Shown in pieces: positions 5,834 to 64,000 of a DNA stretch of 64,000 bases. Origin of the DNA: Parcubacteria group bacterium (GTDB lineage Bacteria > Patescibacteriota > Minisyncoccia > Minisyncoccales > UBA10102); NCBI GenBank assembly GCA_016203945.1, contig JACQLT010000002.1:181336-245335 (forward strand), read 5' to 3'. Below the pieces are notes generated by a model, which had not been told where the DNA came from, searched no databases, and saw only the letters and a program-made list of their open reading frames with translations. Position 1 is the stretch's first letter. Each line of letters starts with the position of its first letter. The translations under genes were made by a program, and so were the position numbers.

Positions 5834-6778
5834 TTAGATGACGTGTGTTGGCGCGCGGGTGTAGGCCTGCGTCGTGGAGATGCTGGCGTGGCCCAGCAAC
5901 TCTTGCACGCTGGTTAGCGACGCGCCTCCAGCCAGTTTGTGCTTGGCGAAGGAGTGGCGCAGGGTGTACGCCGTGACGGCGCCCTGGATATTGGCCAGGC
6001 GGGCATAGTCCTTGAGAATAAGCCAGAAGCCCTGGCGCGTTAGCCGCTCGCCGCGGCAGTTGATGAAGAGCGCCCGCGACCGGCGCAAGCGGGTCAAGTC
6101 GGGCCGCGCCTCCACCAGGTAGGCGTGCAGCGCGGCCACGGCCTGCTCGCGGATGGGGAGCAGGCGCTCCTTGCCCTGGCAGTGCACCCACGCCCGGTTA
6201 TTGTGCAACTTAATGGAGTCCAGGTCGAGCGCCACCAGTTCGCTCACGCGCATGCCGGTGCCGTAGAGTAACTCCAGCATGGCCTTGTCGCGCCGGGCCT
6301 TGGGCGTGAGGGCACAGGGCTGTTCCAGTAGTTCTCTCACCTCGGCTACTCTCAGCGCCTTGGGCAACAACTTACCCACGCGCGGGGACGATAACGCCTT
6401 GGCGGGATCGCTCGCCACGACTCCTTTGGCTGTGAGAAACCTGAAGAAGCTTTTCATCACCGTCACTTTGCGCGCTACGGTGGCGTTGGCATAGTCCTTG
6501 CCCTGCATAGTAGAGATGTAGGCCTGCAGGGTCTCGCGGTTGACGTCCTGCCAGCAGGACGTCTCCGCTCCGCGGTAGTCATTGCGGAACTTCTGGAGCT
6601 GGGTTAGATCGCTGCGGTAGGCAAAGATAGTGTTGGGGGCCACTCTCCTTTCCCTAAGCATGAACCCCAGAAACTGCTCTATCGTCGCGTCGCCAAATTC
6701 CAACTCTGCATTGGGCACGTCCATTCTCCTCCCTTGTGTTAGGTGCTGGCACTCAACAGGAATGCCCAACCATATCAA
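5834..6778 (-). CDS. xerC: tyrosine recombinase XerC/XerD family (site-specific integrase)
   Basis: ARRDKAMLELLYGTGMRVSELVALDLDSI, LRHSFAKHKLAGGASLTSVQELLGHASISTTQAYT: canonical R...HxxR...Y catalytic-domain motifs. Gene body is strongly GC-rich (~65-70%) versus ~50% flanks. Confidence 0.85.
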   Translation of the reverse strand: MIWLGIPVECQHLTQGRRMDVPNAELEFGDATIEQFLGFMLRERRVAPNTIFAYRSDLTQLQKFRNDYRGAETSCWQDVNRETLQAYISTMQGKDYANATVARKVTVMKSFFRFLTAKGVVASDPAKALSSPRVGKLLPKALRVAEVRELLEQPCALTPKARRDKAMLELLYGTGMRVSELVALDLDSIKLHNNRAWVHCQGKERLLPIREQAVAALHAYLVEARPDLTRLRRSRALFINCRGERLTRQGFWLILKDYARLANIQGAVTAYTLRHSFAKHKLAGGASLTSVQELLGHASISTTQAYTRAPTHVI

Positions 6779-6793
6779 AGAGTCCGAAGGGTG

Positions 6794-7111
6794 TCAATAA
6801 AAACCTGTTTTGAACACGCGATATCCTTCGCGCACCTGTTTTGTCACCTTCACCCCAACCTCCTGCCGCTTTTTAACGGCTACGATCTTCTTGTGGTCTT
6901 TCTCTATGGAACCGAGCGTCTGAGAGAACGATTTTCCTCCTCCTTCAAACCGAACTCTATCGCCCTTCTTTACCGGAACAGAAAACTTTACTACCGCAAC
7001 TTTGATCTTGTCGTAGTAATGAATAACTTTGCCCACGAGCTTGTCTTTCTGCTTCTTTTGACTAGCTCTTTTTACAGCAACCTTCTTTTTTGCCTTTTTC
7101 TTTGTCTCCAT
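6794..7111 (-). CDS. small Lys-rich protein with translation-factor domain-II-like beta-barrel
   Basis: METKKKAKKKVAVKRASQKKQKDK tail followed by GKVIHYYDKIKVAVVKFSVPVKKGDRVRFEGGGKSFSQTLGSIE...EVGVKV resembling EF-Tu/IF2 domain 2 pattern; function unknown. Confidence 0.35.
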   Translation of the reverse strand: METKKKAKKKVAVKRASQKKQKDKLVGKVIHYYDKIKVAVVKFSVPVKKGDRVRFEGGGKSFSQTLGSIEKDHKKIVAVKKRQEVGVKVTKQVREGYRVFKTGFY

Positions 7112-7150
7112 ATGGTTCTAGTATGGGGCGAACTTTCAATATGTGATATG

Positions 7151-7222
7151 TGTCCCCATCCAGACTCGAACTGGAATTTCAGCCTTCGGAGGGCTGCGCT
7201 CTATCCATTGAGCTATAAGGAC
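7151..7222 (-). tRNA. tRNA-Arg (anticodon CCG)
   Basis: Manual cloverleaf: acceptor GTCCTTA/TGGGGAC (two G-U), D arm GCTC-AATGGATA-GAGC, anticodon stem CAGCC/GGCTG loop CTCCGAA, T arm TCCAG-TTCGAGT-CTGGA. Confidence 0.75.
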
Positions 7223-7224
7223 AT

Positions 7225-8169
7225 TTATTTATTTCGCGAAACTCGAAACAAACCGCCGGCCTGGACGATTTCAGCGCCCTGTTTTGCAATCTCGTCTAAG
7301 ATGAGGTTCATGCCGATGGAATCAGAAGACATATGGCCTGCCACCACCACGTTTACATGAGCGGCTTCCGCTTCTTTTTTGTGGTCTTCTGAAATGTGCA
7401 TGCCAACGACGGTGCCGATGCCTGCCTGCGCCATACGCTCATAGATCTTTGGGGGGCCCTCTGTCCCTCCGGTCATATCCACGAGAACCTTGCCGCACCT
7501 GTTTTCCGGGCTTCCCGTAAAGATGCGGGGAGCGACTCCGAGCCGCTCTGCCTGCTGGTATTCTCCAATGCCAGAAAGAATCTCCATGAGATCTTCCACG
7601 CGCTCAGGGTTTCCTTTTGTAATCGCGTCACGCACAAACGAAGCAGAAATATTGTCGGCTGCGGTATGAATACACATGAGGTTGATTCCCAAAAGCTTTG
7701 CCGCGTCTACCGTTCTCCAGTGATTCCTTGGATTGATGCCTCGCGCAACCTCAGAAGTCCTCTCTTTCATCATGCCCTCTCCCACGTTGATGGGAACGCC
7801 GTACTGATGAAAAATATCTGCCTGCAATTCCATGACTTCGTGCATGTCTGCCAAAGCTCTTCCCATGGGGTGGTGGGAAATGACCAAATCAATATCTCCC
7901 AATTCCTTTGCGAGCAGGATCTCTCCCACTTCAATATCAATGCCGCACATCACTTTCTTGATTTCTCGGTCGTCCGCAACATGAAGAACCCTGGTGTCCG
8001 AATACGGGTTCGTGAGGGATTCTGCGTCAAACTCCGCTTTCTCGTGGCCGGAAAGCTTTTCGTACTTCTGCTTCCTGCGCTCTAAAAGCTTGGCAACGTA
8101 TTCGTTGCTGCGGAAATCAGCGTCAATCCCCATCTGGACGGCCTTCTTGTAGATGTCCGATATCTTCAT
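7225..8169 (-). CDS. Nif3-like dinuclear metal center protein (YqfO/YbgI family)
   Basis: DREIKKVMCGIDI...DLVISHHPM, CIHTAADN, VVAGHMSSD match NIF3 motifs (DREVKK..., ITHHP, AHTNLD, GHYASE). Confidence 0.5.
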   Translation of the reverse strand: MKISDIYKKAVQMGIDADFRSNEYVAKLLERRKQKYEKLSGHEKAEFDAESLTNPYSDTRVLHVADDREIKKVMCGIDIEVGEILLAKELGDIDLVISHHPMGRALADMHEVMELQADIFHQYGVPINVGEGMMKERTSEVARGINPRNHWRTVDAAKLLGINLMCIHTAADNISASFVRDAITKGNPERVEDLMEILSGIGEYQQAERLGVAPRIFTGSPENRCGKVLVDMTGGTEGPPKIYERMAQAGIGTVVGMHISEDHKKEAEAAHVNVVVAGHMSSDSIGMNLILDEIAKQGAEIVQAGGLFRVSRNK

Positions 8170-8179
8170 GTTGCTCTTT

Positions 8180-9550
8180 TTACCCTATGTGACCTGTTTT
8201 GTCCAGCTCTTCTTTTACAACTTCTCTGTCGTCCCATGGAGTTTTCTTCCCTTTGGCCCAGGCAATGGAGTCTTCGGAGCCCTTGCCGGTGATGACTATT
8301 GTGTCGCCGACCTCTGCTCGTTGAAGAGCTGCTGCTATCGCCTCTCTCCTGTCCGGAATTTTTAATACCGCGGATTTATGCGGATACTGCTGACTGATAT
8401 ATTCTGCTCCTGCGATGACTTCATCAATGATTTTTTGAGGGTCCTCGTCGTACGGGTCTTCGTTGGTGACAATGACGACGTCGCAATAAGTTCCGGCCAG
8501 CTTGCCGAGAATGGGGCGCTTCCATGCGTCTCTTCCCCCTCCCGCGGCTCCCAGTACGCAGATGAGTTTTCCATTGGAGGTTTTTGCTTGCAGGCGCTGC
8601 CGCAGCGTTTTGTATACTTTTTCTAAGGCGTCTGGCGTAAACGCGTAGTCAACGATTACTTCAACGGGCTCTGTTGCAACCTGCTCCATCCTTCCTGGCA
8701 CCTTCTCAATGCTCTCTAATGCCTTTTTGCATGTCTGCATGTTTACGCCCTGCGACAGCGCCGTGCAGATTGCCGCCAGCGCGTTTGAAACATTGAATGT
8801 TCCCAAAAGATTGAGGTGGAATTCTGTATCTCCAACAGAAAACCGCACCCCACTTGCCTGCCGCTCAGGTAGGCCTCTCTCGTCTGCAGAAAGCGTTGCC
8901 TCCACAATCCGGAGAACTTCTTCTCCTGCCTGCCTCGCCGAGTCAAGGCGGGCAATGGATGTGCGAGAGCGCAATCCTGGAATCCTGTATCCAAAAATAG
9001 TCTGTGCGCTGAACTGCAGAAAATATTCCGCGTGTTCGTCATCAAGATTTATCACGTGCACCTCTTTGGCCGCTTGGAATAATCTTCCCTTGGCTTCGCG
9101 GTATTTCTCAAATGATCCGTGGCGCTCGATATGCTCCGGGCTCAAATTGGTGAATACCGCGGTGTGAAAATTAATGAACCTATGGCGGTGCTGTAAAATG
9201 CCCTCGGAAGTTATTTCCAGCACGGCGTGCGTGCAGCCCTGTTTCACGGCCTGGCACAAGAATCGCTGCAGGAAGAAGCGCCCGGGCATGGTCATCTTTA
9301 GGGTGTTGCGCTGGTCTTTGCCCGCAACACGAAATCGCACAGAAGAAAGGGAGGCGGTTTTCTTCCCTTCCTGTTCTAGGATGCGAGAAATCATTTCTAC
9401 GGTTGTTGACTTTCCGTTGGTGCCCGTCACCCCGATCACCACGAGCTTTCTTGAGGGGAATCCGTATATGAGAGCTGCGACAAGGGCGAGGCAGAAATGA
9501 TACCAATCTATCAAAAATTTCGGCGCTAATCTTCTTGCGAGATTCAGCAT
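8180..9550 (-). CDS. murE: UDP-N-acetylmuramoyl-tripeptide synthetase (Mur ligase, MurE-type)
   Basis: GVTGTNGKSTTVEMISRIL P-loop of Mur ligases; DYAFTPDALEKV (MurE DYAHTPDAL motif). Confidence 0.65.
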   Translation of the reverse strand: MLNLARRLAPKFLIDWYHFCLALVAALIYGFPSRKLVVIGVTGTNGKSTTVEMISRILEQEGKKTASLSSVRFRVAGKDQRNTLKMTMPGRFFLQRFLCQAVKQGCTHAVLEITSEGILQHRHRFINFHTAVFTNLSPEHIERHGSFEKYREAKGRLFQAAKEVHVINLDDEHAEYFLQFSAQTIFGYRIPGLRSRTSIARLDSARQAGEEVLRIVEATLSADERGLPERQASGVRFSVGDTEFHLNLLGTFNVSNALAAICTALSQGVNMQTCKKALESIEKVPGRMEQVATEPVEVIVDYAFTPDALEKVYKTLRQRLQAKTSNGKLICVLGAAGGGRDAWKRPILGKLAGTYCDVVIVTNEDPYDEDPQKIIDEVIAGAEYISQQYPHKSAVLKIPDRREAIAAALQRAEVGDTIVITGKGSEDSIAWAKGKKTPWDDREVVKEELDKTGHIG

Positions 9551-9557
9551 AGGGCTT

Positions 9558-10121
9558 TTAGCTGCGCATCAGCTTCAGGGCTTTTTTCACACGCTCTTCC
9601 AGAGGACGAGAAGCATCTTCTGAAGAAAGCTGGGAAACGGCTTGCCGCGCCCGCTGCCTTGGAAATCCCAGGGCAACCAATGCGTCTATCATTTCTTTGT
9701 CTTCTTCCTGCTTTCCCAGAGTTTTGAGTTTCCCCGTCAGCTCCAGAATTATTTTCTGAATCTTTTTTTGTCCCAATCCGTGCACGCCCTTAAAATACGA
9801 GGCGTCTTCCTTTGAAATTGCTTCGTTCAGTCGCTCCCTGCTTCCCAAAGAAGTGATGGCAAGGGCTGCCTTGGGCCCGATGCCAGAAATGTCCGTGAGT
9901 TGCTCAAATAGCTCAAGGTTTGCCGGGGATTCCACGCCGTACAACTCCAGGGTTTCGTCCTTTCTGAGATAGAGGTAGCAATAGAACTCGGCCACCGAGC
10001 CCACACCCACCCGGGAGAGGAGCGCTCCTCCTAGGAATATTTTGTACCCTACCCCGCCTGCCTCTGATATGATATAGTCAGAACCCTTGGCAATAATCGT
10101 GCCCTTGAGATAGGAAATCAT
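9558..10121 (-). CDS. ruvA: Holliday junction branch migration protein RuvA
   Basis: MISYLKGTIIAKGSDYIISEAGGVGYKIF N-terminal OB domain; HhH region ISGIGPKAALAI; 187 aa. Confidence 0.85.
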   Translation of the reverse strand: MISYLKGTIIAKGSDYIISEAGGVGYKIFLGGALLSRVGVGSVAEFYCYLYLRKDETLELYGVESPANLELFEQLTDISGIGPKAALAITSLGSRERLNEAISKEDASYFKGVHGLGQKKIQKIILELTGKLKTLGKQEEDKEMIDALVALGFPRQRARQAVSQLSSEDASRPLEERVKKALKLMRS

Positions 10122-10135
10122 GGCTTTATTCTATC

Positions 10136-12217
10136 ATGGAATTCCGCCTTGTATCCAGCTACAAACCGACCGGAGATCAACCCGAGGCAATCCGTCAGCT
10201 CACAAAAAATCTTAAGATTGGGGCAAAACACCAGACGCTTTTGGGCGTGACAGGGTCTGGCAAGACATTCACTATGTCCAACGTCATCGCCCAGACCCAG
10301 CGCCCCACACTCGTCATCTCCCCCAACAAGACCCTGGCTGCCCAGCTCTACCAGGAGTTCAAAGAGTTCTTCCCCAACAGCGGGGTCCACTATTTCGTTT
10401 CCTATTACGACTACTATCAGCCAGAGGCCTACATTCCGCAAACAGACACCTATATTGAAAAAGACGCGAAAATAAATGAGGTGCTTGACCGCTTGCGCCA
10501 CGAGGCCGTTCAAGACGTGCTCTCGCGCAGAGACGTTATAGTGGTAGCTTCCATATCCTGCATCTATAGCATCGGGTCTCCTGAAGAATACCGGAGGGTC
10601 TCTCTTGGGCTGAAAGAGGGCCAGAAGATGACCCGCAAGGAACTTCTTTCAGCCCTGACTTCTCTCCAGTACCAGCGCAGCGACGCGGACTTAAAACCTG
10701 GAACGTTCCGGGTCAGGGGAGAAATCATTGACTTGTATTTGGTGACCGGCAAAGAAATCCTGAGGTTTGAAATGGCGGGGTCAACGATAGGGAAAATAAC
10801 GAAAAGCTACGCGGATCATGAAGAGCCGGGCACGGCTCTTTCTTCCTGCACCGTGTATCCCGGAAAATTCTGGGTTGCAGAAGAGGAACGCCTCAAGGTT
10901 GCCATGGCGAACATTCGCCTTGAACTCCAGGAACGGCTTCAAGAACTCAAAAAACAGGGAAAACTCCTGGAAGCGGAGCGCCTGGAACAGCGCACAAACT
11001 ATGATCTTGAGATGATAGCTGAATCCGGATACTGCCACGGCATTGAAAACTATTCTCGCCATCTTGAGTTCCGAAAGCAAGGAGACCCTCCGTTCACGCT
11101 TCTGGACTATTTCCCTGCCTCGCCAGCTCGCCTCGCTGAAGCTCCGGCGAAGCGGGCAGGCGGGCCCAAGGACCTCCTCGTATTCCTTGACGAAAGCCAT
11201 CTTACTCTTCCCCAGCTGCAGGCGATGTCCGCGCAGGACCGCATGCGCAAAGAATCTCTCGTGGAGCACGGATTCAGGCTGCCTTCTGCGATAGACAACC
11301 GGCCGCTGAGAAAAGAAGAGTTTTTTGCCAGGGCCCCTCAGGTAACATACGTGTCCGCGACTCCAGGGGCGTTTGAGAAACAGATGTCCGGCCCATTTGT
11401 GGCAGAACAGCTTATCCGCCCCACCCTGCTCTTAGAACCCGTCGTAGAAATAAGGACGACGAAGAACCAGCTCTCAGACCTTCTTAAGGAAATCCAGGGG
11501 CTCGCGCAGAAGAAACAGCGCACGCTCGTGGTCACGCTTACCAAACGCCTCGCAGAAGACATCGCAGACCATCTTGCAAAAGCAGGAGTCAGTGTGCAGT
11601 GGATGCACTCTGAAGTAAAGACGCTGGATCGTCCTCACATCCTAGAAAGCTTCAGGAGAGGAACATACGACGTACTCGTTGGCATCAACCTTCTGCGCGA
11701 GGGCTTGGATCTTCCCGAGGTCGCGCTTGTCGCGATTTTGGACGCCGACAAGGAGGGATTTCTGCGCAACGAAACAACGCTCATCCAGACCATGGGAAGG
11801 GCGGCCCGGCACCAAGAGGGCAGAGCCATTTTGTATGCCGACACGATTACGGGTTCCATGCAACGGGCACTCAAAGAAATCTCCAGGAGGAGAAAAATTC
11901 AGGAGGAGTACAACAAAGAGCATGGAGGGGTGCCACAGGCAATCGTGAAAGAAATCCGAAAGTGGGAACTCGGGACAAAAGAAAAAGCAACTCTGGCTGA
12001 GTTCGCGGCGGTCCAGGACGTTCAGGTCCTGCAACAAGAGATGAGGACGGCCGCCTCAAGCCTGGATTTTGAACGGGCTGCCGAAATTCGGGACTTGATA
12101 AAAAAAGTGAAGGGTGATACAAATACGGGGTATGGCAAATACAACATCGGCCCAGAAGGCGTTGCGGCAAAGCGTCAAAAGGAGAAAGATAAACCTGGCA
12201 AAAAAAGCCGGGGTTAA
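10136..12217 (+). CDS. uvrB: excinuclease ABC subunit B
   Basis: LLGVTGSGKTFTMSNVI Walker A; helicase motifs; C-terminal UVR domain LDFERAAEIRDLIKKVKG; 693 aa with an unusual 30-aa tail after the UVR motif. Confidence 0.9.
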   Translation: MEFRLVSSYKPTGDQPEAIRQLTKNLKIGAKHQTLLGVTGSGKTFTMSNVIAQTQRPTLVISPNKTLAAQLYQEFKEFFPNSGVHYFVSYYDYYQPEAYIPQTDTYIEKDAKINEVLDRLRHEAVQDVLSRRDVIVVASISCIYSIGSPEEYRRVSLGLKEGQKMTRKELLSALTSLQYQRSDADLKPGTFRVRGEIIDLYLVTGKEILRFEMAGSTIGKITKSYADHEEPGTALSSCTVYPGKFWVAEEERLKVAMANIRLELQERLQELKKQGKLLEAERLEQRTNYDLEMIAESGYCHGIENYSRHLEFRKQGDPPFTLLDYFPASPARLAEAPAKRAGGPKDLLVFLDESHLTLPQLQAMSAQDRMRKESLVEHGFRLPSAIDNRPLRKEEFFARAPQVTYVSATPGAFEKQMSGPFVAEQLIRPTLLLEPVVEIRTTKNQLSDLLKEIQGLAQKKQRTLVVTLTKRLAEDIADHLAKAGVSVQWMHSEVKTLDRPHILESFRRGTYDVLVGINLLREGLDLPEVALVAILDADKEGFLRNETTLIQTMGRAARHQEGRAILYADTITGSMQRALKEISRRRKIQEEYNKEHGGVPQAIVKEIRKWELGTKEKATLAEFAAVQDVQVLQQEMRTAASSLDFERAAEIRDLIKKVKGDTNTGYGKYNIGPEGVAAKRQKEKDKPGKKSRG

Positions 12218-12395
12218 AAGACTCAGAAAAGAATTGGAAGCTCTACTTCAAAAAAAAGAAATTCAGCAGGCCGAAGCTCTTCTCCAACAGGCCTACAAGT
12301 CGATTGATAAGGCGGCAAAAACCGGAGTACTTAAAAAGAATACTGCTGCGAGAAAAAAGTCTCGTCTGGCCCGCCTCCTGAAAACACGTTCGTAA
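12132..12395 (+). CDS. rpsT: 30S ribosomal protein S20
   Basis: MANTTSAQKALRQSVKRRKINLAKKAGVKRLRKEL...GVLKKNTAARKKSRLARLL matches S20 family; start placed at MANT; overlaps uvrB tail by ~85 nt in another frame. Confidence 0.7.
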   Translation: MANTTSAQKALRQSVKRRKINLAKKAGVKRLRKELEALLQKKEIQQAEALLQQAYKSIDKAAKTGVLKKNTAARKKSRLARLLKTRS

Positions 12396-57647: not shown

Positions 57648-57952
57648 TTCACCCATCACTCCATTTCGGAGTCTTCGTCATCGGGCGTGTCGTCATCCGC
57701 GGATTCTTTTTCCTCTTCTGTTTCCGCGTCGTCGTCCGCGCCCTCTTCTTGATTTTCAATTAAAGAATCAAACTCGTCGTAGATCATGCAAAAAATGTAA
57801 TGAGTTGAGCGACCTTTTCAACCCCCATCATACGTACCCAATACCCCTTGTCAACCCTGCGTGGAGGTTCGTTTTCCACAATTGCGAACAAGAGAATATT
57901 GTGGTAGGGTAACTACGATTCTTACACACCGCCGTAGTCTTGAAAGAAGCGG

Positions 57953-58029
57953 GCTCCCGTAGCTCAATTGGACAGAGCAGCTCACTCCTAACGAGCAGGT
58001 TAGAGGTTCGACTCCTCTCGGGGGCACCA
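57953..58029 (+). tRNA. tRNA-Arg (anticodon CCT), CCA encoded
   Basis: Acceptor GCTCCCG/CGGGGGC, D arm GCTC-AATTGGACA-GAGC, anticodon stem GCTCA/CGAGC (A31-C39 mismatch) loop CTCCTAA, T arm AGAGG-TTCGACT-CCTCT, ACCA end. Confidence 0.65.
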
Positions 58030-58036
58030 GAAAGAT

Positions 58037-58112
58037 GGGCCGTTGGCGCAGTTGGTAGCGCGCCTCGATGGCATCGAGGAGGTCACCGGTTCGAGTCCGG
58101 TACGGTCCACCA
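58037..58112 (+). tRNA. tRNA-Ala (anticodon GGC), CCA encoded
   Basis: Acceptor GGGCCGT/ACGGTCC with G3-U70 identity pair, D arm GCGC-AGTTGGTA-GCGC, anticodon stem CCTCG/CGAGG loop ATGGCAT, T arm CACCGG-TTCGAGT-CCGGT region, ACCA end. Confidence 0.7.
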
Positions 58113-58198
58113 GGAGGGTTGGCAGAACGGCTAATGCGCTGGTTTCGAAAACCAGTGGGAGCAATCCCTTGCAGGTTCGAATCCTGCACCCTCCGCCA
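58113..58198 (+). tRNA. tRNA-Ser (anticodon CGA), long variable arm, CCA encoded
   Basis: Acceptor GGAGGGT/ACCCTCC, anticodon stem CTGGT/ACCAG loop TTCGAAA, 16-nt variable arm TGGGAGCAATCCCTTG, T arm CAGG-TTCGAAT-CCTG, discriminator G, CCA; starts immediately after previous tRNA. Confidence 0.7.
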
Positions 58199-58274
58199 AT
58201 TTACAACTTTTTATCGGTATGACCCGAGTAATCGACGCTGCAGTGCGACCCACATACCCGACAACGAACCGGAC

Positions 58275-58330
58275 TTGACATAGATCTATCCACAGCTATA
58301 TACTTAAATAGTTGCTTAACTACTTAAGTA
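58275..58330 (+). promoter_or_regulatory. promoter plus imperfect inverted-repeat operator upstream of ArsR-family regulator
   Basis: TTGACA (58275-80), 16-nt spacer, TATATA (58297-302); overlapping inverted repeat TACTTAAATAG ... CTACTTAAGTA (58301-311 / 58320-330, 1 mismatch). Confidence 0.45.
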
Positions 58331-58349
58331 GTAATATACTAATAAACAT

Positions 58350-58673
58350 ATGTTGGATAAGAAACAAATAGCAAATATTAAAGCTGAATTAGCCACCGAG
58401 GAAGCGGCTTTCCCGCTGGTGTTTCAGGCCCTTGGCGACCCCTGCCGATTTAAAGTTTTTAAGGTGCTTATGCAGTATCACGATATATGCGTTACCGATA
58501 TTGCTAATATCTTCGGCATTACCCTGTCCGCCGCATCCCAGCAATTGCGGGTTCTTGAACGCCTAGGGCTTGTTCAAAAAATGAGGATGGGACAAATGGT
58601 TTGCTATGAGATTAACGTCGAAAATTCCATTGCAAAACAATTATTCAAGTTATTTAAAGGGTCGAACAAATAA
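58350..58673 (+). CDS. ArsR/SmtB-family HTH transcriptional regulator
   Basis: FQALGDPCRFKVFKVLMQYHDICVTDIANIFGITLSAASQQLRVLERLGLVQ: wHTH with ArsR-type CxF/C motif region. Confidence 0.7.
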   Translation: MLDKKQIANIKAELATEEAAFPLVFQALGDPCRFKVFKVLMQYHDICVTDIANIFGITLSAASQQLRVLERLGLVQKMRMGQMVCYEINVENSIAKQLFKLFKGSNK

Positions 58674-58699
58674 TTAATAAAAATTAACAAAATACATTT

Positions 58700-58936
58700 A
58701 TGTCTAAAGTTACTATCTACACCACCCCTTCTTGCGTCTACTGCAAAATGACCAAAGAGTTCTTTAAAGAAAACAATGTTCAGTATGAGGAAAAAGATGT
58801 ATCGCAGGATGCAGCGGCACGAGACGAAATGATCGCAAAATCCAATCAAATGGGCGTGCCGGTTATTGATGTGGACGGCCAGCTGACCGTTGGCTTCGAC
58901 AAGGAGCGGCTCTCCCAATTATTAAATATAAAATAA
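58700..58936 (+). CDS. glutaredoxin-like / NrdH-type small redoxin
   Basis: 78 aa, TIYTTPSCVYCKMTKEFF (CxxC), GVPVIDVDG. Confidence 0.7.
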   Translation: MSKVTIYTTPSCVYCKMTKEFFKENNVQYEEKDVSQDAAARDEMIAKSNQMGVPVIDVDGQLTVGFDKERLSQLLNIK

Positions 58937-58946
58937 CCCAGGAACC

Positions 58947-59477
58947 ATGAGCAGTAAACTTTTGATTGGCGGCGTTGTTCTTGTTGTAGCGGGTCTATTG
59001 ATATTCGGAAGATTCAACAGCAATAACACGCCTTCAGCCGGCACAGCATCCGTCCAGAACAGTATATCCGCCGGTTCTATTCATACCGCTCCCGACTTTA
59101 CTCTCCAGAAGCTTGGCGGCGGAACTATTTCGCTTTCCGAATTCAAGGGCAAAAAGCCGGTTGTGGTTGATTTCTGGGCTTCTTGGTGTCCGAATTGCCG
59201 CCGCGACATGCCGAATCTCAATCGCTTTTATGAAAAATATAAAGATAGGGTCGAGGTTATCGGCGTTAACTTACAAGAACGAGAGTCGACCGTTGCAGAT
59301 TTTATTAAATCGCGTGATATAAATTTCCCGATCGCGCTCGATCCTTCGGGACAGGCATCAAATGCTTTTGGAATTCAGTATACCAATACACATTTTTTAA
59401 TAGATAAAGAGGGCAATCTTGTCCGCACTATCCCGGGAGATATACGAGAATCTGATATTCTCTCGCTTATTCAATAA
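58947..59477 (+). CDS. TlpA/ResA-like membrane-anchored thiol-disulfide oxidoreductase
   Basis: N-terminal TM, VVDFWASWCPNCRRDMPNL thioredoxin-fold CxxC. Confidence 0.7.
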   Translation: MSSKLLIGGVVLVVAGLLIFGRFNSNNTPSAGTASVQNSISAGSIHTAPDFTLQKLGGGTISLSEFKGKKPVVVDFWASWCPNCRRDMPNLNRFYEKYKDRVEVIGVNLQERESTVADFIKSRDINFPIALDPSGQASNAFGIQYTNTHFLIDKEGNLVRTIPGDIRESDILSLIQ

Positions 59478-59479
59478 TT

Positions 59480-60562
59480 ATGGGTTTTTCAAAACCGACA
59501 ATAATTATAGGTATAATAATAATTGCGGCTTTGGGGTATTTAGTTTTGTCGCGTACAATATTCCGCAACGATTTTCAACTGCCCCGCGGCGGGGGAACAA
59601 AAACGGAAACGATATCCATTCCCGATGGCGAGGCAGATGGCAATACTTCATTTTTAACAAAAGAAATTATGATTACTGACGGTGTAAAACATAGCGTTCC
59701 CTTAAGTGAAATTATCGGCGGGGGACCGCCTAAAGACGGAATTCCTTCTATTGATAGTCCGAAATTTATTTCGGTTGCGGATGCAAGCAAGGTTTTAAAC
59801 GACAGCGAGCCCGGCATTGCCTTAGATATAAATGGCACCGCCCGATTTTATCCATTTCAAATTTTGGTCTGGCATGAAATTGTAAACGATACCATCAATG
59901 GCCAGCGCGTGCTTGTTACCTACTGTCCGCTTTGCCTTTCCGGAATTGTGTTTGATCCGGTGGTGCCCTTCCCCGCCGAGGCTTCGGCGGGCAAGCAGGG
60001 CGAGCGCGTGGAATTCGGAACGTCCGGAAAATTGTGGAATTCCAATTTGGTGATGTACGATCGCAAAACCGATTCGTTGTGGTCGCAAATTCTAGGCGAA
60101 GCAATTGTGGGCGAGCTTACAGGCACAAAACTTAAAGTTCTTTCCTCTGATATGGTACGCTTTGGCGATTTTAAAAAGCTACATCCTGACGGATCGGTAC
60201 TTTCCCGTGATACGGGAACAACGCGATTCTATGGTCAAGATCCCTATGGTGATTACTACACTAGCCCCGGAACCTATTTCCCTGTCAGCAAGAAAGACAA
60301 TCGTTTGGGAGATAAGGATTTTATTCTCGGTATCGTGGTAAACGGAAAAGCGAAAGCATATTGGCCGGAAGCGGTGAAGAAAGCGGGCGAGATATCGGAT
60401 CGGTTCGAAGGAAAAGATATAATCGCGCAGTATGAAAAAGACATTGATGCGGTGCGGCTTTTTGAGAAAAAAGTCGACGGAACGGTCGAACGCATCAATC
60501 CGTTCGGCTCGTTCTGGTTTTCCTGGGTTGCCGCGCATCCCGATACGGAATTGTTAAAATAA
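59480..60562 (+). CDS. DUF3179-family protein (membrane-anchored)
   Basis: ARFYPFQILVWHEIVNDTINGQRVLVTYCPLC matches DUF3179 signature (YCPLC). Confidence 0.55.
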   Translation: MGFSKPTIIIGIIIIAALGYLVLSRTIFRNDFQLPRGGGTKTETISIPDGEADGNTSFLTKEIMITDGVKHSVPLSEIIGGGPPKDGIPSIDSPKFISVADASKVLNDSEPGIALDINGTARFYPFQILVWHEIVNDTINGQRVLVTYCPLCLSGIVFDPVVPFPAEASAGKQGERVEFGTSGKLWNSNLVMYDRKTDSLWSQILGEAIVGELTGTKLKVLSSDMVRFGDFKKLHPDGSVLSRDTGTTRFYGQDPYGDYYTSPGTYFPVSKKDNRLGDKDFILGIVVNGKAKAYWPEAVKKAGEISDRFEGKDIIAQYEKDIDAVRLFEKKVDGTVERINPFGSFWFSWVAAHPDTELLK

Positions 60563-60564
60563 GT

Positions 60565-61905
60565 ATGGCTCAAGAAGAAAAATACAATGTTATAATTATC
60601 GGCGGCGGTGTTACCGGTACCGCTCTCCTGTATGTTCTTTCGCGCTATACGAATATATCCCGTATTGCCATTTTTGAAAAATATAATGAAGCGGCAATGG
60701 TAAATTCACATTACGACAACAACAGTCAAACGCTGCATTTTGGAGATATTGAAACCAACTATACTCTTGAAAAGGCGAAAAGAGTAAAGGAGGCGGCTGA
60801 TATTTTAGTGCGATATCTTAAATCTTACGCTCCAAATGCTTTTACAAAAGGAAGCAAAATGGTTTTAGCCATCGGCAAAAAAGAAACGCGCGAGCTTGAG
60901 AAACGATATGAAGAATTTCACACGCTGTTTCCAAAGCTGAAAAAAATTGAACGCGATCAAATCTCTAAACTTGAGCCGAATGTTGTAAAGGGACGAGACT
61001 ATCGCGAGAATCTGCTTGCTCTCGTGACCGAAGATGGTTACGCGGTCAATTATAAAGCGCTTTCCGAATCATTTATCCGGGAATCGCGCGTAACCGATAA
61101 AGAGATTGACATTTTTTTTGGCACGGAGGTAAAAGAAATTAAGAGAAAAAATGAAATATACGCTGTAAATACCTCTAAGAGCTCATTTTCTGCCGATGTC
61201 GTTGCAGTCATGGCCGGACCGCATAGCCTTATTTTTGCTCATTCGCTGGGATATGGGAAACATTTTGGAATTTTGCCTGTAGCCGGAAGTTTTTACTGCG
61301 CCGATAATCTTCTGAATGGAAAGGTTTACACGATGCAAATCAAAAAATTGCCATTCGCGGCGATTCACGGCGACCCCGATGTAAATAATCGCGCCGAAAC
61401 TCGTTTTGGTCCCACGGCAAAAGTGCTTCCTCTTTTTGAGCGGCACAATTATCGCACTATAGCCGATTTTATAAAAACATCGATTTGGAATTTAAGCGGA
61501 GTTTTTAGTCTGATTAAGATTATTGCCGACCCAACTCTCTTTAGGTATGTTTTTAAAAATCTGGCTTACGACATTCCGATAATCGGCAAACGGTTTTTTC
61601 TGCGAAGTGTCCGAAAAATCGTACCGATGGCGAAATATAGCTCCCTCCATTACGGCAAAGGCATTGGCGGTATACGCCCGCAAATTGTGAATACAAAAAC
61701 AATGAAACTTGAAATGGGTGAGGCGGAAATCGTAGGAGACAAAATTCTTTTCAATATTACGCCATCGCCTGGAGCTTCGGTGAGTCTTAAAAACGCCGAA
61801 CAAGACGCGTTAAAAATCATTAATTTCTTGGGCGATCTTTTTTCATTTGACCAGCAAAAATGGTGTCTAGATACCGGATCAACAATGCTTGAATGCAGAG
61901 AATAG
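60565..61905 (+). CDS. FAD-dependent oxidoreductase (malate:quinone / 2-hydroxyglutarate oxidase-like)
   Basis: YNVIIIGGGVTGTALLYVLSRY dinucleotide-binding motif; 446 aa. Confidence 0.45.
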   Translation: MAQEEKYNVIIIGGGVTGTALLYVLSRYTNISRIAIFEKYNEAAMVNSHYDNNSQTLHFGDIETNYTLEKAKRVKEAADILVRYLKSYAPNAFTKGSKMVLAIGKKETRELEKRYEEFHTLFPKLKKIERDQISKLEPNVVKGRDYRENLLALVTEDGYAVNYKALSESFIRESRVTDKEIDIFFGTEVKEIKRKNEIYAVNTSKSSFSADVVAVMAGPHSLIFAHSLGYGKHFGILPVAGSFYCADNLLNGKVYTMQIKKLPFAAIHGDPDVNNRAETRFGPTAKVLPLFERHNYRTIADFIKTSIWNLSGVFSLIKIIADPTLFRYVFKNLAYDIPIIGKRFFLRSVRKIVPMAKYSSLHYGKGIGGIRPQIVNTKTMKLEMGEAEIVGDKILFNITPSPGASVSLKNAEQDALKIINFLGDLFSFDQQKWCLDTGSTMLECRE

Positions 61906-61956
61906 ATAGTTCATAATAATTAAAGGTCGATGAATTAATAATTTAATTTAAAAAAT

Positions 61957-62340
61957 ATGTTTGAACAACTGATACAATACAACGACATCGGGCTTCTGAT
62001 CCTACGCTTTGCGGTGGCAATAATCTTTATCTATCATGCATTGCCAAAGCTGAAGAATGCCAAAGGCATGGCGCAAATGGTGGGCATGCCCGCGGGCATG
62101 GTGTTGATGCTAGGTATGATGGAAATGATTGGGTCGCTGGCGCTAGTCTTTGGTTTCTACGTACAGCTTGTGGCATTGGTTCTCGCCATCATAATGATTG
62201 GCGCAATTGGGATGAAGACGATGAAATGGCATGTTCCGTTTGCGGCAATGGATAAAACCGGCTGGGAGTTTGATTTGATTCTTCTTGCCGCCAACATCAT
62301 CCTTCTTGTGATCGGCGGCGGATCGATTGGAGTTCAATAA
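61957..62340 (+). CDS. DoxX-family membrane protein
   Basis: 127 aa, 4 TM, LLILRFAVAIIFIYHALPKL DoxX-like start. Confidence 0.55.
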   Translation: MFEQLIQYNDIGLLILRFAVAIIFIYHALPKLKNAKGMAQMVGMPAGMVLMLGMMEMIGSLALVFGFYVQLVALVLAIIMIGAIGMKTMKWHVPFAAMDKTGWEFDLILLAANIILLVIGGGSIGVQ

Positions 62341-62367
62341 AGGGTCAATGGTAATAATTGTTAATTA

Positions 62368-62640
62368 TTGAAATTTACCATTATGCTCATAGAGTTTTAC
62401 GGGAAAGAATGCCCGCATTGCATCAAAATGATGCCGCTCGCAGAGCGTCTTGAAAAAGATACCGGACTTAAAGTTGAGAAATACGAAGTGTGGCACAACG
62501 AGGAAAACGCAAAAAAAATGGAAGGGCACAACAAAGGCCGGTGCGGCGGCGTTCCGTTTTTCATTAATACGGATACCGACGCCATAATCTGCGGCGAGGC
62601 TCCTTATGAAGAACTAAAAAAATGGGCTGGGGTGGAATAA
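62368..62640 (+). CDS. thioredoxin-fold protein (CPHC active site)
   Basis: IEFYGKECPHCIKMMPLAERL; about 85-90 aa; alternative start at MLIEFY (62383). Confidence 0.6.
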   Translation: MKFTIMLIEFYGKECPHCIKMMPLAERLEKDTGLKVEKYEVWHNEENAKKMEGHNKGRCGGVPFFINTDTDAIICGEAPYEELKKWAGVE

Positions 62641-62688
62641 GGTCGACCACCTCAAGGAAAAATTAATAAATTAACAATCCAAAAATAT

Positions 62689-63057
62689 ATGCAAAACATG
62701 AAATCAATGATGATGCCAATGCTGATTCTTCTTGTCCTCGTGATCGCTTCTCTGACGTTCGTGTGGCAAGGAATTGGCATGCAAAGCCAGGTGGCAATTG
62801 AGGAAGCGAAGTTCCACGCGTTGCAACAGGATTACTTCATTATGAGTAAGGTGGAGCGTGAAGCAGCGGTAACAGGATCGGAGCTGAATCAAAAACTGGT
62901 TCAAATTCAGAATTATCCTTCCGAACTTCTGCGATTGAAGCTTGTCGGCGCTGGGAAAATCCTTACTGGTATTTTCCTTTCGCTTTTGGCGATTGTCTTC
63001 CTGCTCTTCATGGTGCCAATTCGCTTGGCAAAATTAATGAAAGAAAATAGGCAATAA
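62689..63057 (+). CDS. hypothetical membrane protein (2 TM)
   Basis: N- and C-terminal TM segments flanking a polar central region. Confidence 0.3.
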   Translation: MQNMKSMMMPMLILLVLVIASLTFVWQGIGMQSQVAIEEAKFHALQQDYFIMSKVEREAAVTGSELNQKLVQIQNYPSELLRLKLVGAGKILTGIFLSLLAIVFLLFMVPIRLAKLMKENRQ

Positions 63058-63096
63058 AGATCGGAAATAGTAATAATCAACTAAGCAATAAAAAAT

Positions 63097-63267
63097 GTGA
63101 ACAATCAAAACGATCAAAAAAAGTTTGTCTGCAAGAGCTGTGGTTCGGAGTCGCAAGAAAAAACTGGAACATGCTGTGGCGGGGAGCGAGAAGAAAAGAA
63201 AGAAGCAGGCGTATGCCTGGCGTGCAGCTGTCCGTGTGACGAGCACAAAGAACACGCCCACAAATAA
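63097..63267 (+). CDS. candidate small Cys/His-rich metal-binding protein (56 aa, GTG start; not in ORF track)
   Basis: In-frame translation (V/M)NNQNDQKKFVCKSCGSESQEKTGTCCGGEREEKKEAGVCLACSCPCDEHKEHAHK: 10 Cys in CxxC/CC/CxC/CxCxC patterns plus His-rich tail; upstream in-frame stop at 63082; no ATG start. Confidence 0.3.
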   Translation: MNNQNDQKKFVCKSCGSESQEKTGTCCGGEREEKKEAGVCLACSCPCDEHKEHAHK

Positions 63268-63453
63268 AGTGGGTGTGTTCCAGAGATGGTAAGATACGGC
63301 ATAATGTCAGACATAAATATAAAACAGTTGAATAATGCCCAGAATTGAAGTCGGCGGTATTGATCAACAACGGATTAAGGACTTCATCTCTCGTTATCAG
63401 AACAGAGGCCCGGAAAACGTAAATGTCCCACAGGGTCATTTAAGATAATTACC

Positions 63454-64000
63454 ATGAAGAAAACTTATCTTTTTATAATCATTGCAGTAATTGTTGTGGC
63501 CATCGGCTGGTTGGCAGTTTCAAGAACGGGGCAAAGTCCGAGCACATCTTCAACTGGAGATACAGCCACGCCAAACAAACAAGAAGCTCAATTAGAAAAG
63601 GCGCCAAATTTCAGCCTGCAAGATTACAACGGCAAAACGGTAAATCTCTCAGATTTTGCCGGCAAACCGCTCGTGATAAATTCCTGGGCCGCGTGGTGTC
63701 CGTTTTGCAAAAAAGAATTGCCTGATTTTGCTGCCGCTCAAAAAGAATTCGACGACAAAGTTGTCATTATTGCCATTGATCGGTCAGAATCGCTCGCAGT
63801 CGCGAAGGGCTATACCGATCAGCAAAGCATTACAGATAATCTGATTTTCCTGCTTGATCCGTCCGATTCGTTCTATCGGTCTATCGGAGGATTTTCCATG
63901 CCAGAAAGTATCTTTGTGGATAAAAATGGTAATATTGTTGACCATAAGCGCGGACCGATGGATATAAATGAAATGCGCGAAAGAATTAATAAACTTCTGG
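63454..64000 (+). CDS. TlpA-like thiol-disulfide oxidoreductase (3' partial, runs off window end)
   Basis: ATG at 63454; TM KKTYLFIIIAVIVVAIGWLAV; LVINSWAAWCPFCKKELPDF thioredoxin-fold CxxC; no stop before 64000. Confidence 0.65.
   Translation, partial: MKKTYLFIIIAVIVVAIGWLAVSRTGQSPSTSSTGDTATPNKQEAQLEKAPNFSLQDYNGKTVNLSDFAGKPLVINSWAAWCPFCKKELPDFAAAQKEFDDKVVIIAIDRSESLAVAKGYTDQQSITDNLIFLLDPSDSFYRSIGGFSMPESIFVDKNGNIVDHKRGPMDINEMRERINKLL

Follow-up and report, generated by a model that had tools for sequence, protein, structure and literature searches.

We analyzed a 64,000-nucleotide stretch of DNA (the window) from a contig of a groundwater bacterium of the Parcubacteria group and conclude that positions 58199 to at least 64000 are probably the opening stretch of a thiol-redox operon under ArsR control, which a Parcubacterium of ~52% G+C content (GC) would have acquired horizontally from a Parcubacterium of ~43–45% GC. 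An earlier note on this DNA had suggested a horizontally acquired island, a suggestion supported by a large shift in composition, by the absence of the block from its site in a related locus (L013) and by closest homologues in Parcubacteria of 38–47% GC. Homology that sets in right where a tRNA gene ends and an enrichment of tRNA genes upstream of homologous operons complete the case. We infer that the block was inserted by site-specific recombination at the tRNA 3′ end, by a recombinase that would lie beyond the window, have been lost, or act in trans.

The break in composition falls at a tRNA gene. The window contains 12 tRNA genes, the last three of which are all on the + strand (ARAGORN, confirmed with Rfam):

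57953–58029, + strand: tRNA-Arg(cct), a host tRNA upstream of the landmark
58037–58112, + strand: tRNA-Ala(ggc), likewise a host tRNA upstream of the landmark
58113–58198, + strand: tRNA-Ser(cga), the landmark, whose 3′ end is the left junction of the putatively acquired block

GC is 52.1% over positions 1–58198 and 43.0% over positions 58199–64000, with a maximum-likelihood change point at 58274. An island of ~40% GC beginning at the 3′ end of tRNA-Ser(cga) had been described in the earlier note; the drop at the tRNA stands, but the value is 43.0%, and the poorest 1-kb bin in the block reaches 40.5%. By formal testing of GC and codon usage the difference is large. The GC of the block gives z = −9.9 against 524 sliding segments of the same length from the first 58 kb, in which the minimum was 49.0%, and the tetranucleotide distance of the block from the host profile gives z = 18. 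At codon positions one, two and three, GC is 0.50, 0.36 and 0.45 in the block genes and 0.58, 0.41 and 0.59 in 54 upstream open reading frames (ORFs), and Mann-Whitney comparisons of block and upstream genes gave p = 8e-7 for GC and p = 3e-4 for GC at the third position (GC3).

The host side of the junction was compared with its relatives. RNase Y of the host (MBI4123116.1) and the ArsR protein of the block (MBI4123117.1) have consecutive accessions on the same 248,619-bp contig. Relatives of this RNase Y at 87–96% identity come from sources named Paceibacterota or Wildermuthbacteria and from contigs of 50–54% GC. One of them, L013 (50% GC; RNase Y 89% identical in amino acids; ~80% nucleotide identity over the shared genes), has the same seven tRNA genes as the window in the same order and orientation, Gly-Pro-Arg-His-Arg-Ala-Ser(cga). 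Beginning 20 bp past tRNA-Ser(cga), L013 carries a DUF4446 gene and then a gene for a GTPase with a GTP_EFTU domain, probably infB, and the redox block is absent; neither DUF4446 nor the L013-type GTPase gene was found within the window. Because tRNA-Ser(cga) of L013 occupies the matching position after Arg and Ala, this tRNA belongs to the host context. The comparison of presence and absence thus finds, in one relative with the same tRNA cluster, no counterpart of the block at the site. In L012, the closest relative (RNase Y 95%), a rearrangement sets in right behind tRNA-Pro, and this locus gives no information on the site.

All gene families that the earlier note had named in this segment are present (Pfam, NCBIfam and CxxC motifs), and two further features were added, a conserved two-transmembrane (TM) protein that we call TM122 and the remnant of a DUF3105 gene. 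The block reads as follows:

58350–58673, + strand: ArsR/SmtB-family repressor of 107 amino acids (PF01022, helix-turn-helix HTH_5, 1.2e-8; GenBank MBI4123117.1)
58700–58936, + strand: cytoplasmic glutaredoxin-like protein of the YruB family with a CVYC motif (Pfam Glutaredoxin, 1.3e-20; TIGR02196, 97 bits against a cutoff of 88.55)
58947–59477, + strand: first membrane-anchored TlpA/ResA-like oxidoreductase (TlpA1), WCPNC (AhpC-TSA/Redoxin; hydrophobic N-terminus)
59480–60562, + strand: DUF3179 protein with an N-terminal TM helix and a YCPLC motif (PF11376 at full length, 1.1e-88, 298 bits against a cutoff of 27)
60565–61905, + strand: flavin adenine dinucleotide (FAD)-dependent oxidoreductase of the Mqo / L-2-hydroxyglutarate dehydrogenase superfamily (Pfam Mqo and DAO, full length)
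61957–62340, + strand: DoxX-family integral membrane protein (PF07681, 5.6e-13)
62368–62640, + strand: small thioredoxin-like protein, CPHC (PF00085, 23.6 bits against a cutoff of 23.5)
62689–63057, + strand: TM122, a conserved two-TM protein of 122 amino acids, absent from the earlier note
63097–63267, + strand: Cys/His-rich micro-protein of 56 amino acids, CxxC-x10-CC-x12-CxxC with a His-rich tail
63344–63445, + strand: DUF3105 remnant, the last 34 amino acids (tblastn, 76% over residues 179–211 of 211), absent from the earlier note
63454–64000 and past the window end, + strand: second membrane-anchored TlpA/ResA-like oxidoreductase, WCPFC (NCBIfam ResA/TlpA models under their curated cutoffs; hydrophobic N-terminus)

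No paralogues of these genes were found in the first 58 kb of the window. An ArsR-anchored metagenome scan yielded 15 loci. The operon is widespread in Parcubacteria yet unstudied, and we found no description of it in the literature on bacteria of the Candidate Phyla Radiation (CPR). Compared with operons in Parcubacteria of 38–47% GC, the block shows 80–89% nucleotide identity. ArsR, the glutaredoxin-like protein and TlpA1 are 85–97% identical in amino acids, and 84–89% in nucleotides, to those of L014–L022 (38–45% GC); the FAD-DoxX part is 87% identical in nucleotides to L009; and the part comprising the thioredoxin, TM122 and the micro-ORF is 82–84% identical to L029–L031, the CPHC thioredoxin homologues in L030 and L031 being 82–85% identical. 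The 90%-identity cluster of ArsR also holds proteins from metagenome-assembled genomes of Brennerbacteria and Liptonbacteria.

Across the longer loci the operon has a modular order, in which square brackets mark optional parts. The 5′ part runs ArsR-Grx-[FMN reductase]-TlpA-[MerC-like]-DUF3179-[Mqo-like]-DoxX-[DUF2703]-[glutamate dehydrogenase], where Grx is the glutaredoxin-like protein and FMN is flavin mononucleotide. The 3′ part runs TrxR-like-[small Trx]-TM122-Cys-rich micro-protein-[DUF3105]-TlpA-[G6PD/6PGD fusion]-[DSPc phosphatase-like]-[DsbA-like]-CcdA, where Trx is thioredoxin, TrxR thioredoxin reductase, G6PD glucose-6-phosphate dehydrogenase and 6PGD 6-phosphogluconate dehydrogenase. 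Of this order the window holds ArsR through the second TlpA, without TrxR, DUF2703, an intact DUF3105 gene or CcdA. A DUF3105 gene is intact at the position of the remnant in L030 and L031 (Pfam DUF3105 in L030), so that the copy in the window has suffered deletions, and TrxR and DUF2703 are also missing. In L008 and L011 the gene right behind the second TlpA is that for CcdA (DsbD_TM); in L032, L033, L034 and L036 other genes lie between the two. The fused G6PD/6PGD, an enzyme of the oxidative pentose-phosphate pathway and a source of NADPH, is found inside or at the end of the operon at L036:11382-13772 and L011:12446-15032, and glutamate dehydrogenase occupies a similar place in L027 and L033. 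At L033:11450-12500 an IS630-type transposase gene (DDE_3 and HTH domains) lies between the second TlpA and DSPc; it is absent from the near-identical L034 and L035.

Homology to these operons begins at the tRNA. Strong nucleotide homology to a dozen loci opens at 58266–58275 (blastn), which coincides with the GC change point at 58274, and a weaker homologous block runs from 58174/58191 to 58256 (blastn). Three features were recognized ahead of or at the start of the operon, including the promoter and operator that the earlier note had assigned to the ArsR gene:

58199–58256, + strand: remnant of the leader, with the 5′ half of its conserved hairpin, ATTTACAACTTTTTATCGG...GCGACCCAC (blastn, alignment, pattern search and RNAalifold)
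58275–58304, + strand: near-consensus sigma-70-type promoter ahead of arsR, TTGACA-18-TATACT
58301–58330, + strand: candidate ArsR operator, a 13-4-13 inverted repeat TACTTAAATAGTT / AACTACTTAAGTA that overlaps the −10 element

Alignment of the upstream regions revealed a shared leader layout, in which ATTGACAACTTTTTATCG...GCGACCCAC is followed by a bidirectional terminator and then the promoter. The full leader is ~110 nucleotides long (L015:9789-9905, L016:503-619, L018:3990-4106 and others), and its terminator is perfect and bidirectional. In the window the 3′ half of the hairpin and the terminator, both of which are present in other loci, have been deleted. The hairpin has a 17-bp stem with a few compensatory changes (RNAalifold). 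A search of the conserved leader against Rfam gave no family, only sub-threshold Leu_leader-like matches due to the terminator; the leader could be a small RNA derived from a tRNA 3′ trailer or a recombination site. In five cases it starts at the base right after the tRNA, namely in the window, L018 and L019 (all Ser cga), in L015 (Ser gga) and in L016 (Trp). Leader and promoter are 80–89% identical across genomes whose tRNAs differ by 13–37%, the flanking tRNAs of these genomes having a mutual identity of only 63–87%. As a rule, then, the non-coding leader is better conserved than the tRNAs beside it, a pattern that points to a recent spread of the block.

Two further observations concern the tRNA side of this junction. 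The tRNAs of these lineages, at 63–87% identity, diverge too rapidly to reveal a chimera of host and donor sequence in tRNA-Ser(cga) or its import with the block. In L011 an intact tRNA-Ser(gga) is separated from the operon leader by a 5′-truncated tRNA-Ser(gga)-like pseudogene (1015-1178), which retains the anticodon, variable and T arms together with the 3′ strand of the acceptor stem and contains an insertion of ~100 nucleotides.

The association with tRNA genes extends beyond the window. A same-strand tRNA gene lies no more than 800 bp upstream in ~11 of 19 distinct contexts, compared with a background of 6.6% among the genes of these loci (binomial p = 5e-9; p = 1.6e-4 with a conservative count). 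At least eight tRNA species precede the operon; those in front of arsR include Ser-cga, Ser-gga, Trp, Asn, Ile, Ala and Thr, and Gly stands in front of the FAD gene. A 9.4-kb element of L022 (L022:223-9790) separates tRNA-Ser(cga) from the redox operon and is flanked by a 10-bp direct repeat, CTCCGCCAAT. Its cargo comprises a frameshifted remnant of a large serine recombinase, an ABC transporter and a TaqI restriction-modification system with a LexA-fused methylase, and the recombinase remnant together with the flanking repeat marks it as a true integrative element at tRNA-Ser(cga). A displaced 9-nucleotide tRNA end is common to L017, L021 and L022. The tRNA-Ser(cga) site is a hotspot used by other mobile elements.

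Among five criteria for a tRNA-linked island, three were found here: the position at a tRNA 3′ end, the deviant composition and codon usage, and the absence from a relative. The patchy, phylogenetically incongruent distribution is a further likeness to such islands. Those that carry P4-type tyrosine or serine integrases differ in that our block has no visible integrase, excisionase or flanking repeat, either here or in homologous loci, and in that the same cargo stands behind at least eight tRNA species and its visible part is a single operon. One way to read these differences is that leader and redox operon together form a small mobile cassette without an integrase, which a trans-acting recombinase would place at the 3′ ends of various Parcubacteria tRNAs, with the 17-bp-stem hairpin serving as a folded recombination site comparable to attC of integrons. 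We regard this as decidedly improbable. If it were true, both the route of operon transfer between CPR genomes and its cargo, an extracytoplasmic thiol system with DUF3179, the Mqo-like/DoxX pair, TM122 and the Cys-rich micro-protein at its core, would be new to the literature. As an event, the horizontal acquisition that we favor is of a fairly ordinary kind, a tRNA-adjacent gene transfer.

The operon in genomes of higher GC bears on whether the block could instead be ancestral. L033–L035 lie on contigs of 50.7% GC, and their TM122 homologue (P0273) is labeled Wildermuthbacteria by NCBI. The operon of L033–L035 is more distant from the copy in the window (ArsR 58%, TlpA1 70%) than are those of low-GC lineages, where ArsR identity is ~91%. 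Its GC is 47–54%, that of its own genome, which indicates that the operon is not intrinsically AT-rich; in genomes of 38–45% GC the operon has 40–46% GC, equal to or above its flanks. It is very unlikely indeed, then, that the operon always stood after tRNA-Ser(cga), disappeared from L013 and owes its AT-richness to its function, since elsewhere it matches the GC of its genome and here it lies 9 points below, its proteins are nearer to those of low-GC lineages than to the L033–L035 copy, and the non-coding leader and promoter are so much better conserved than the tRNAs. Such an ancestral state would draw support from the linkage of tRNA-Ser(cga) and operon in L018 and L019, from L022, in which the same linkage can be inferred for the time before the 9.4-kb insertion, and from the wide occurrence of the operon in Parcubacteria.

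The linkage in L018 and L019 would also fit an artifact of assembly, in which a genome of 52% GC would have been joined to a Parcubacteria genome of 43% GC through a common tRNA-Ser(cga). Both loci are of low GC and carry tRNA-Ser(cga) followed by the operon, and the break in the window coincides with that tRNA gene. The sequence past 64000 is outside the analyzed window, and the copy in the window shows no GC-ward bias in its substitutions. Such a join is nevertheless very unlikely. The tRNA-Ser(cga) genes are 63–87% identical and the copy in the window is unlike all others, making a long exact shared repeat improbable; an 86-nucleotide tRNA would fall below the final k of many assemblers; the 64-kb window contains no Ns; and L013 has tRNA-Ser(cga) at the matching position after Arg and Ala.

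Several points weigh against horizontal acquisition of a thiol-redox operon as we describe it. The window, which ends at 64000, shows neither the right boundary nor a return to host GC nor CcdA. Presence and absence are judged from one informative relative, L013. No integrase or recombinase was found in 58199–64000 (Pfam, NCBIfam), no direct repeat of the leader or of the end of tRNA-Ser in 58215–64000 or in the 15-kb L011, and no integrase or recombinase inside the homologous operons, where L033 has only the polymorphic IS630-type insertion. The operon also adjoins tRNA-Ser(cga) in several further lineages, so that its linkage to this tRNA may be old. The private substitutions of the copy in the window number 71 AT-to-GC and 63 GC-to-AT, like the controls and without bias. 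They give no positive sign of evolution inside a 52% GC genome, which fits a very recent transfer and also a chimeric contig. As to function, the window has neither TrxR nor a known substrate (Msr, cytochrome c, Sco), and we infer the functional chain.

The surroundings of the tRNA cluster also vary between relatives. In L012 (8880-10565) synteny stops after tRNA-Pro(tgg), which corresponds to position ~57285 of the window, and a gene for a PilB/GspE-type ATPase replaces the Arg-His-Arg-Ala-Ser tRNAs. L013 has a 6.1-kb insertion of its own (6177-12301), bounded by RNase Y on one side and by the 3′ end of tRNA-Gly(tcc) on the other, with genes for an ABC transporter, an HMBD P-type ATPase, a DsbD_TM-like protein and a DUF1573 protein. 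Neither the window nor L012 has this insertion, so that both flanks of the tRNA cluster are variable. In the window tRNA-Ala(ggc) encodes its CCA and abuts tRNA-Ser(cga) with no spacer, and in L013 there is a 5-nucleotide spacer and no CCA; among the host tRNAs encoding of CCA is mixed. A strongly acidic ORF of 43–44 amino acids occupies the same position, between tRNA-His and tRNA-Arg(cct), on the − strand of both the window (57656-57787) and L013 (12856-12990).

We next consider what the operon encodes. Its first gene, as is the case for other ArsR/SmtB repressors, specifies the regulator itself, with an inverted-repeat candidate operator over its own promoter, and the operator-like 22-mer recurs in 12 related loci with at most three mismatches, in 10 of these with at most two (pattern search). 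The ArsR protein passes the cutoff of NCBIfam NF033788 (68 bits against 55), and CadC is its closest solved structure. It shares the winged-helix HTH_5 fold of CadC from S. aureus pI258 (1u2w) over ~90 residues. Cys47 and Cys85 are invariant in the alignment of ArsR homologues and Cys32 is variable. The ligands of CadC are not retained, however. CVT replaces CVC, the N-terminal Cys and the His/Asp ligands of alpha5 are absent, the alpha3N set is cut to one Cys, and the Cys47/Cys85 pair matches no sensing site among those compared; neither an alpha3/alpha3N Cys cluster nor an alpha5 site of the known kind was found. Judged from these residues, thiol-based or otherwise novel sensing is as likely as the sensing of a metal.

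TlpA1 matches the ResA subfamily model of NCBIfam at 2.4e-34, yet under the cutoff. The YCPLC motif of the DUF3179 protein (nucleotides 59921–59935) is the only Cys pair of that protein and is invariant in eight homologues. The DUF3179 family, found in three papers and listed as a selenoprotein family in two of them, includes selenocysteine forms, UxxC/T (PMC9312934, PMC13188914), which mark YCPLC as redox-active or metal-binding. The copy in the window contains an in-frame insertion of 30 nucleotides (59966–59995; PFPAEASAGK; 73% GC) with a palindrome, CCGCCGAGGCTTCGGCGG; the 10 added residues are unique to this copy and absent in seven homologues. We considered the insertion as a host repeat that would tie the block to the host, but the window has no second copy. 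AlphaFold2 run on the DUF3179 protein without an alignment gave a predicted local distance difference test score (pLDDT) of 33, and the TM helix was the sole confident part.

The FAD enzyme resembles Mqo and L-2-hydroxyglutarate dehydrogenase in matching Pfam Mqo and DAO along its full length, but scores far under every curated equivalog cutoff (Mqo, 107.6 bits against 499; LhgO, 93 against 299) and is a member of none. Its relatives in the PDB are 9dm1, a probable Mqo, and 8w75, deposited as 'FI05204p', which we take to be Drosophila L2HGDH. It belongs to a separate clade common to CPR bacteria, DPANN archaea and some cyanobacteria, and homologues 54–60% identical occur in DPANN (Nanoarchaeota, Woesearchaeota) and cyanobacteria (P0060, P0078, P0098, P0107, P0110 and P0116). 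This distribution suggests that the gene may have been exchanged across domains among groundwater episymbionts; no relatives were found among viral contigs. The FAD gene is paired with DoxX in seven distinct arrangements (L001, L002, L003, L008, L009/L010, L011 and L036/L037).

TM122 matched no family in Pfam or NCBIfam. It has 308 homologues at 64–100% identity, and all of those with named sources come from CPR lineages. The Cys-rich micro-protein follows TM122 in five of the eight arrangements that bear TM122, and is called as a gene in L011, L030, L031 and L032. Its six Cys residues are invariant in an alignment of five loci, and this conservation indicates that the micro-ORF is real.

Taken at the level of families, a thiol-redox function is well supported, and the earlier note's proposal of extracytoplasmic disulfide management agrees with the domain content and with CcdA, TrxR and G6PD in homologous loci. 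Drawing on family knowledge and gene neighborhoods, we propose the following pathway. The ArsR-type repressor would sit on the inverted repeat that overlaps the −10 element and would be released once the invariant Cys47 and Cys85 were oxidized or bound to a thiophilic ligand. The operon would then provide the cytoplasmic glutaredoxin-like and CPHC thioredoxin-like redoxins, which would pass electrons to a CcdA-type membrane transporter and from there to the anchored extracytoplasmic CxxC proteins, namely the two TlpA-like proteins and DUF3179. CcdA would presumably be encoded just past 64000, as it is at or near the end of the operon in homologous loci. The extracytoplasmic CxxC proteins would keep or repair surface thiols. 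Reducing power would flow from NADPH-generating enzymes through TrxR and the thioredoxin- and glutaredoxin-type redoxins to CcdA, and the presence of TrxR, G6PD/6PGD or glutamate dehydrogenase in homologous loci fits an operon that also supplies NADPH. A defined client (apocytochrome c, MsrAB or a Sco/CuA-type domain) was found neither in the window nor in the homologous operons.

The same genes could be read as a module for resistance to metals or metalloids (of the Cd, Hg, Cu or As type) or to reactive sulfur or electrophiles, with general disulfide upkeep being no main task. We consider this rather unlikely. The constant core of the operon consists of thioredoxin-fold reductases, neither an efflux pump nor MerA nor ArsB/C was found in the window (Pfam, NCBIfam), and the CadC ligands are not conserved in ArsR, even though the repressor is most similar to that Cd/Pb sensor and matches the NCBIfam metalloregulator subfamily. 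Resistance would, on the other hand, give a place to the Cys/His-rich micro-protein, to a MerC-like membrane protein (under the cutoff) in L033, to the DSPc phosphatase-like gene in four loci, to an HMA P-type ATPase gene adjoining the operon in L037, to a rhodanese in L011 and to the FMN reductases of several variants. DUF3179 is also among the selenoproteins listed with metal-related families (PMC9312934). The metal handling proposed in the earlier note thus finds some company in the CadC-like ArsR, the Cys-rich micro-protein and, in some loci, the sub-threshold MerC-like protein and the HMA ATPase, but not in the ligand set of CadC, and the link of the operon to metals is weak.

Read as a thiol-redox pathway, as we favor, the system belongs with the CcdA/TlpA reducing pathways as a variant to which several conserved partners are added. 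CcdA-ResA/StoA of Bacillus and TlpA of Bradyrhizobium exemplify CcdA-dependent extracytoplasmic reducing pathways. The operon resembles these in its anchored ResA/TlpA-type CxxC proteins, in the CcdA (DsbD_TM) gene at or near its end in six homologous arrangements, and in the cytoplasmic redoxins and TrxR encoded alongside, the latter in homologous loci. It differs in having no Msr, cytochrome c or Sco-type client and no CcdA in the window, in its extra partners (DUF3179, the Mqo-like/DoxX pair, TM122 and the micro-protein), and in the NADPH-generating enzymes inside some operons. The nearest characterized analogue is the CcdA-Etrx1/2-MsrAB2 surface system of Streptococcus pneumoniae (PMC3914529).

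The DoxX protein allows two further comparisons. DoxX-SseA-SodA of M. tuberculosis is a DoxX-containing complex of thiol homeostasis. The operon is similar in placing DoxX in a thiol-redox gene context, with a rhodanese in the L011 variant, but the partner here is the Mqo-like flavoprotein and there is no SodA. Copper-binding operons of ribosomally synthesized and post-translationally modified peptides (RiPPs) also contain a DoxX protein, HvfX; our operon differs from them in having no MNIO or RiPP genes, and its DoxX scores 22 bits with the HvfX model against a cutoff of 80.

The genomes of CPR bacteria are tiny, and how these cells cope with oxidants and exchange genes is poorly understood. 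The locus would represent the unameliorated transfer of a whole regulated operon, at a tRNA hotspot, between Parcubacteria lineages ~9% apart in GC. To judge from its genes and those of its homologues, this CPR operon appears to provide the cell surface with reducing power that derives from NADPH. It has four conserved but uncharacterized components: DUF3179, DoxX with its Mqo-like flavoprotein, TM122 and the Cys-rich micro-protein. We suggest that the locus offers a well-defined entry point to the surface redox biology of CPR bacteria and to gene flow among them.

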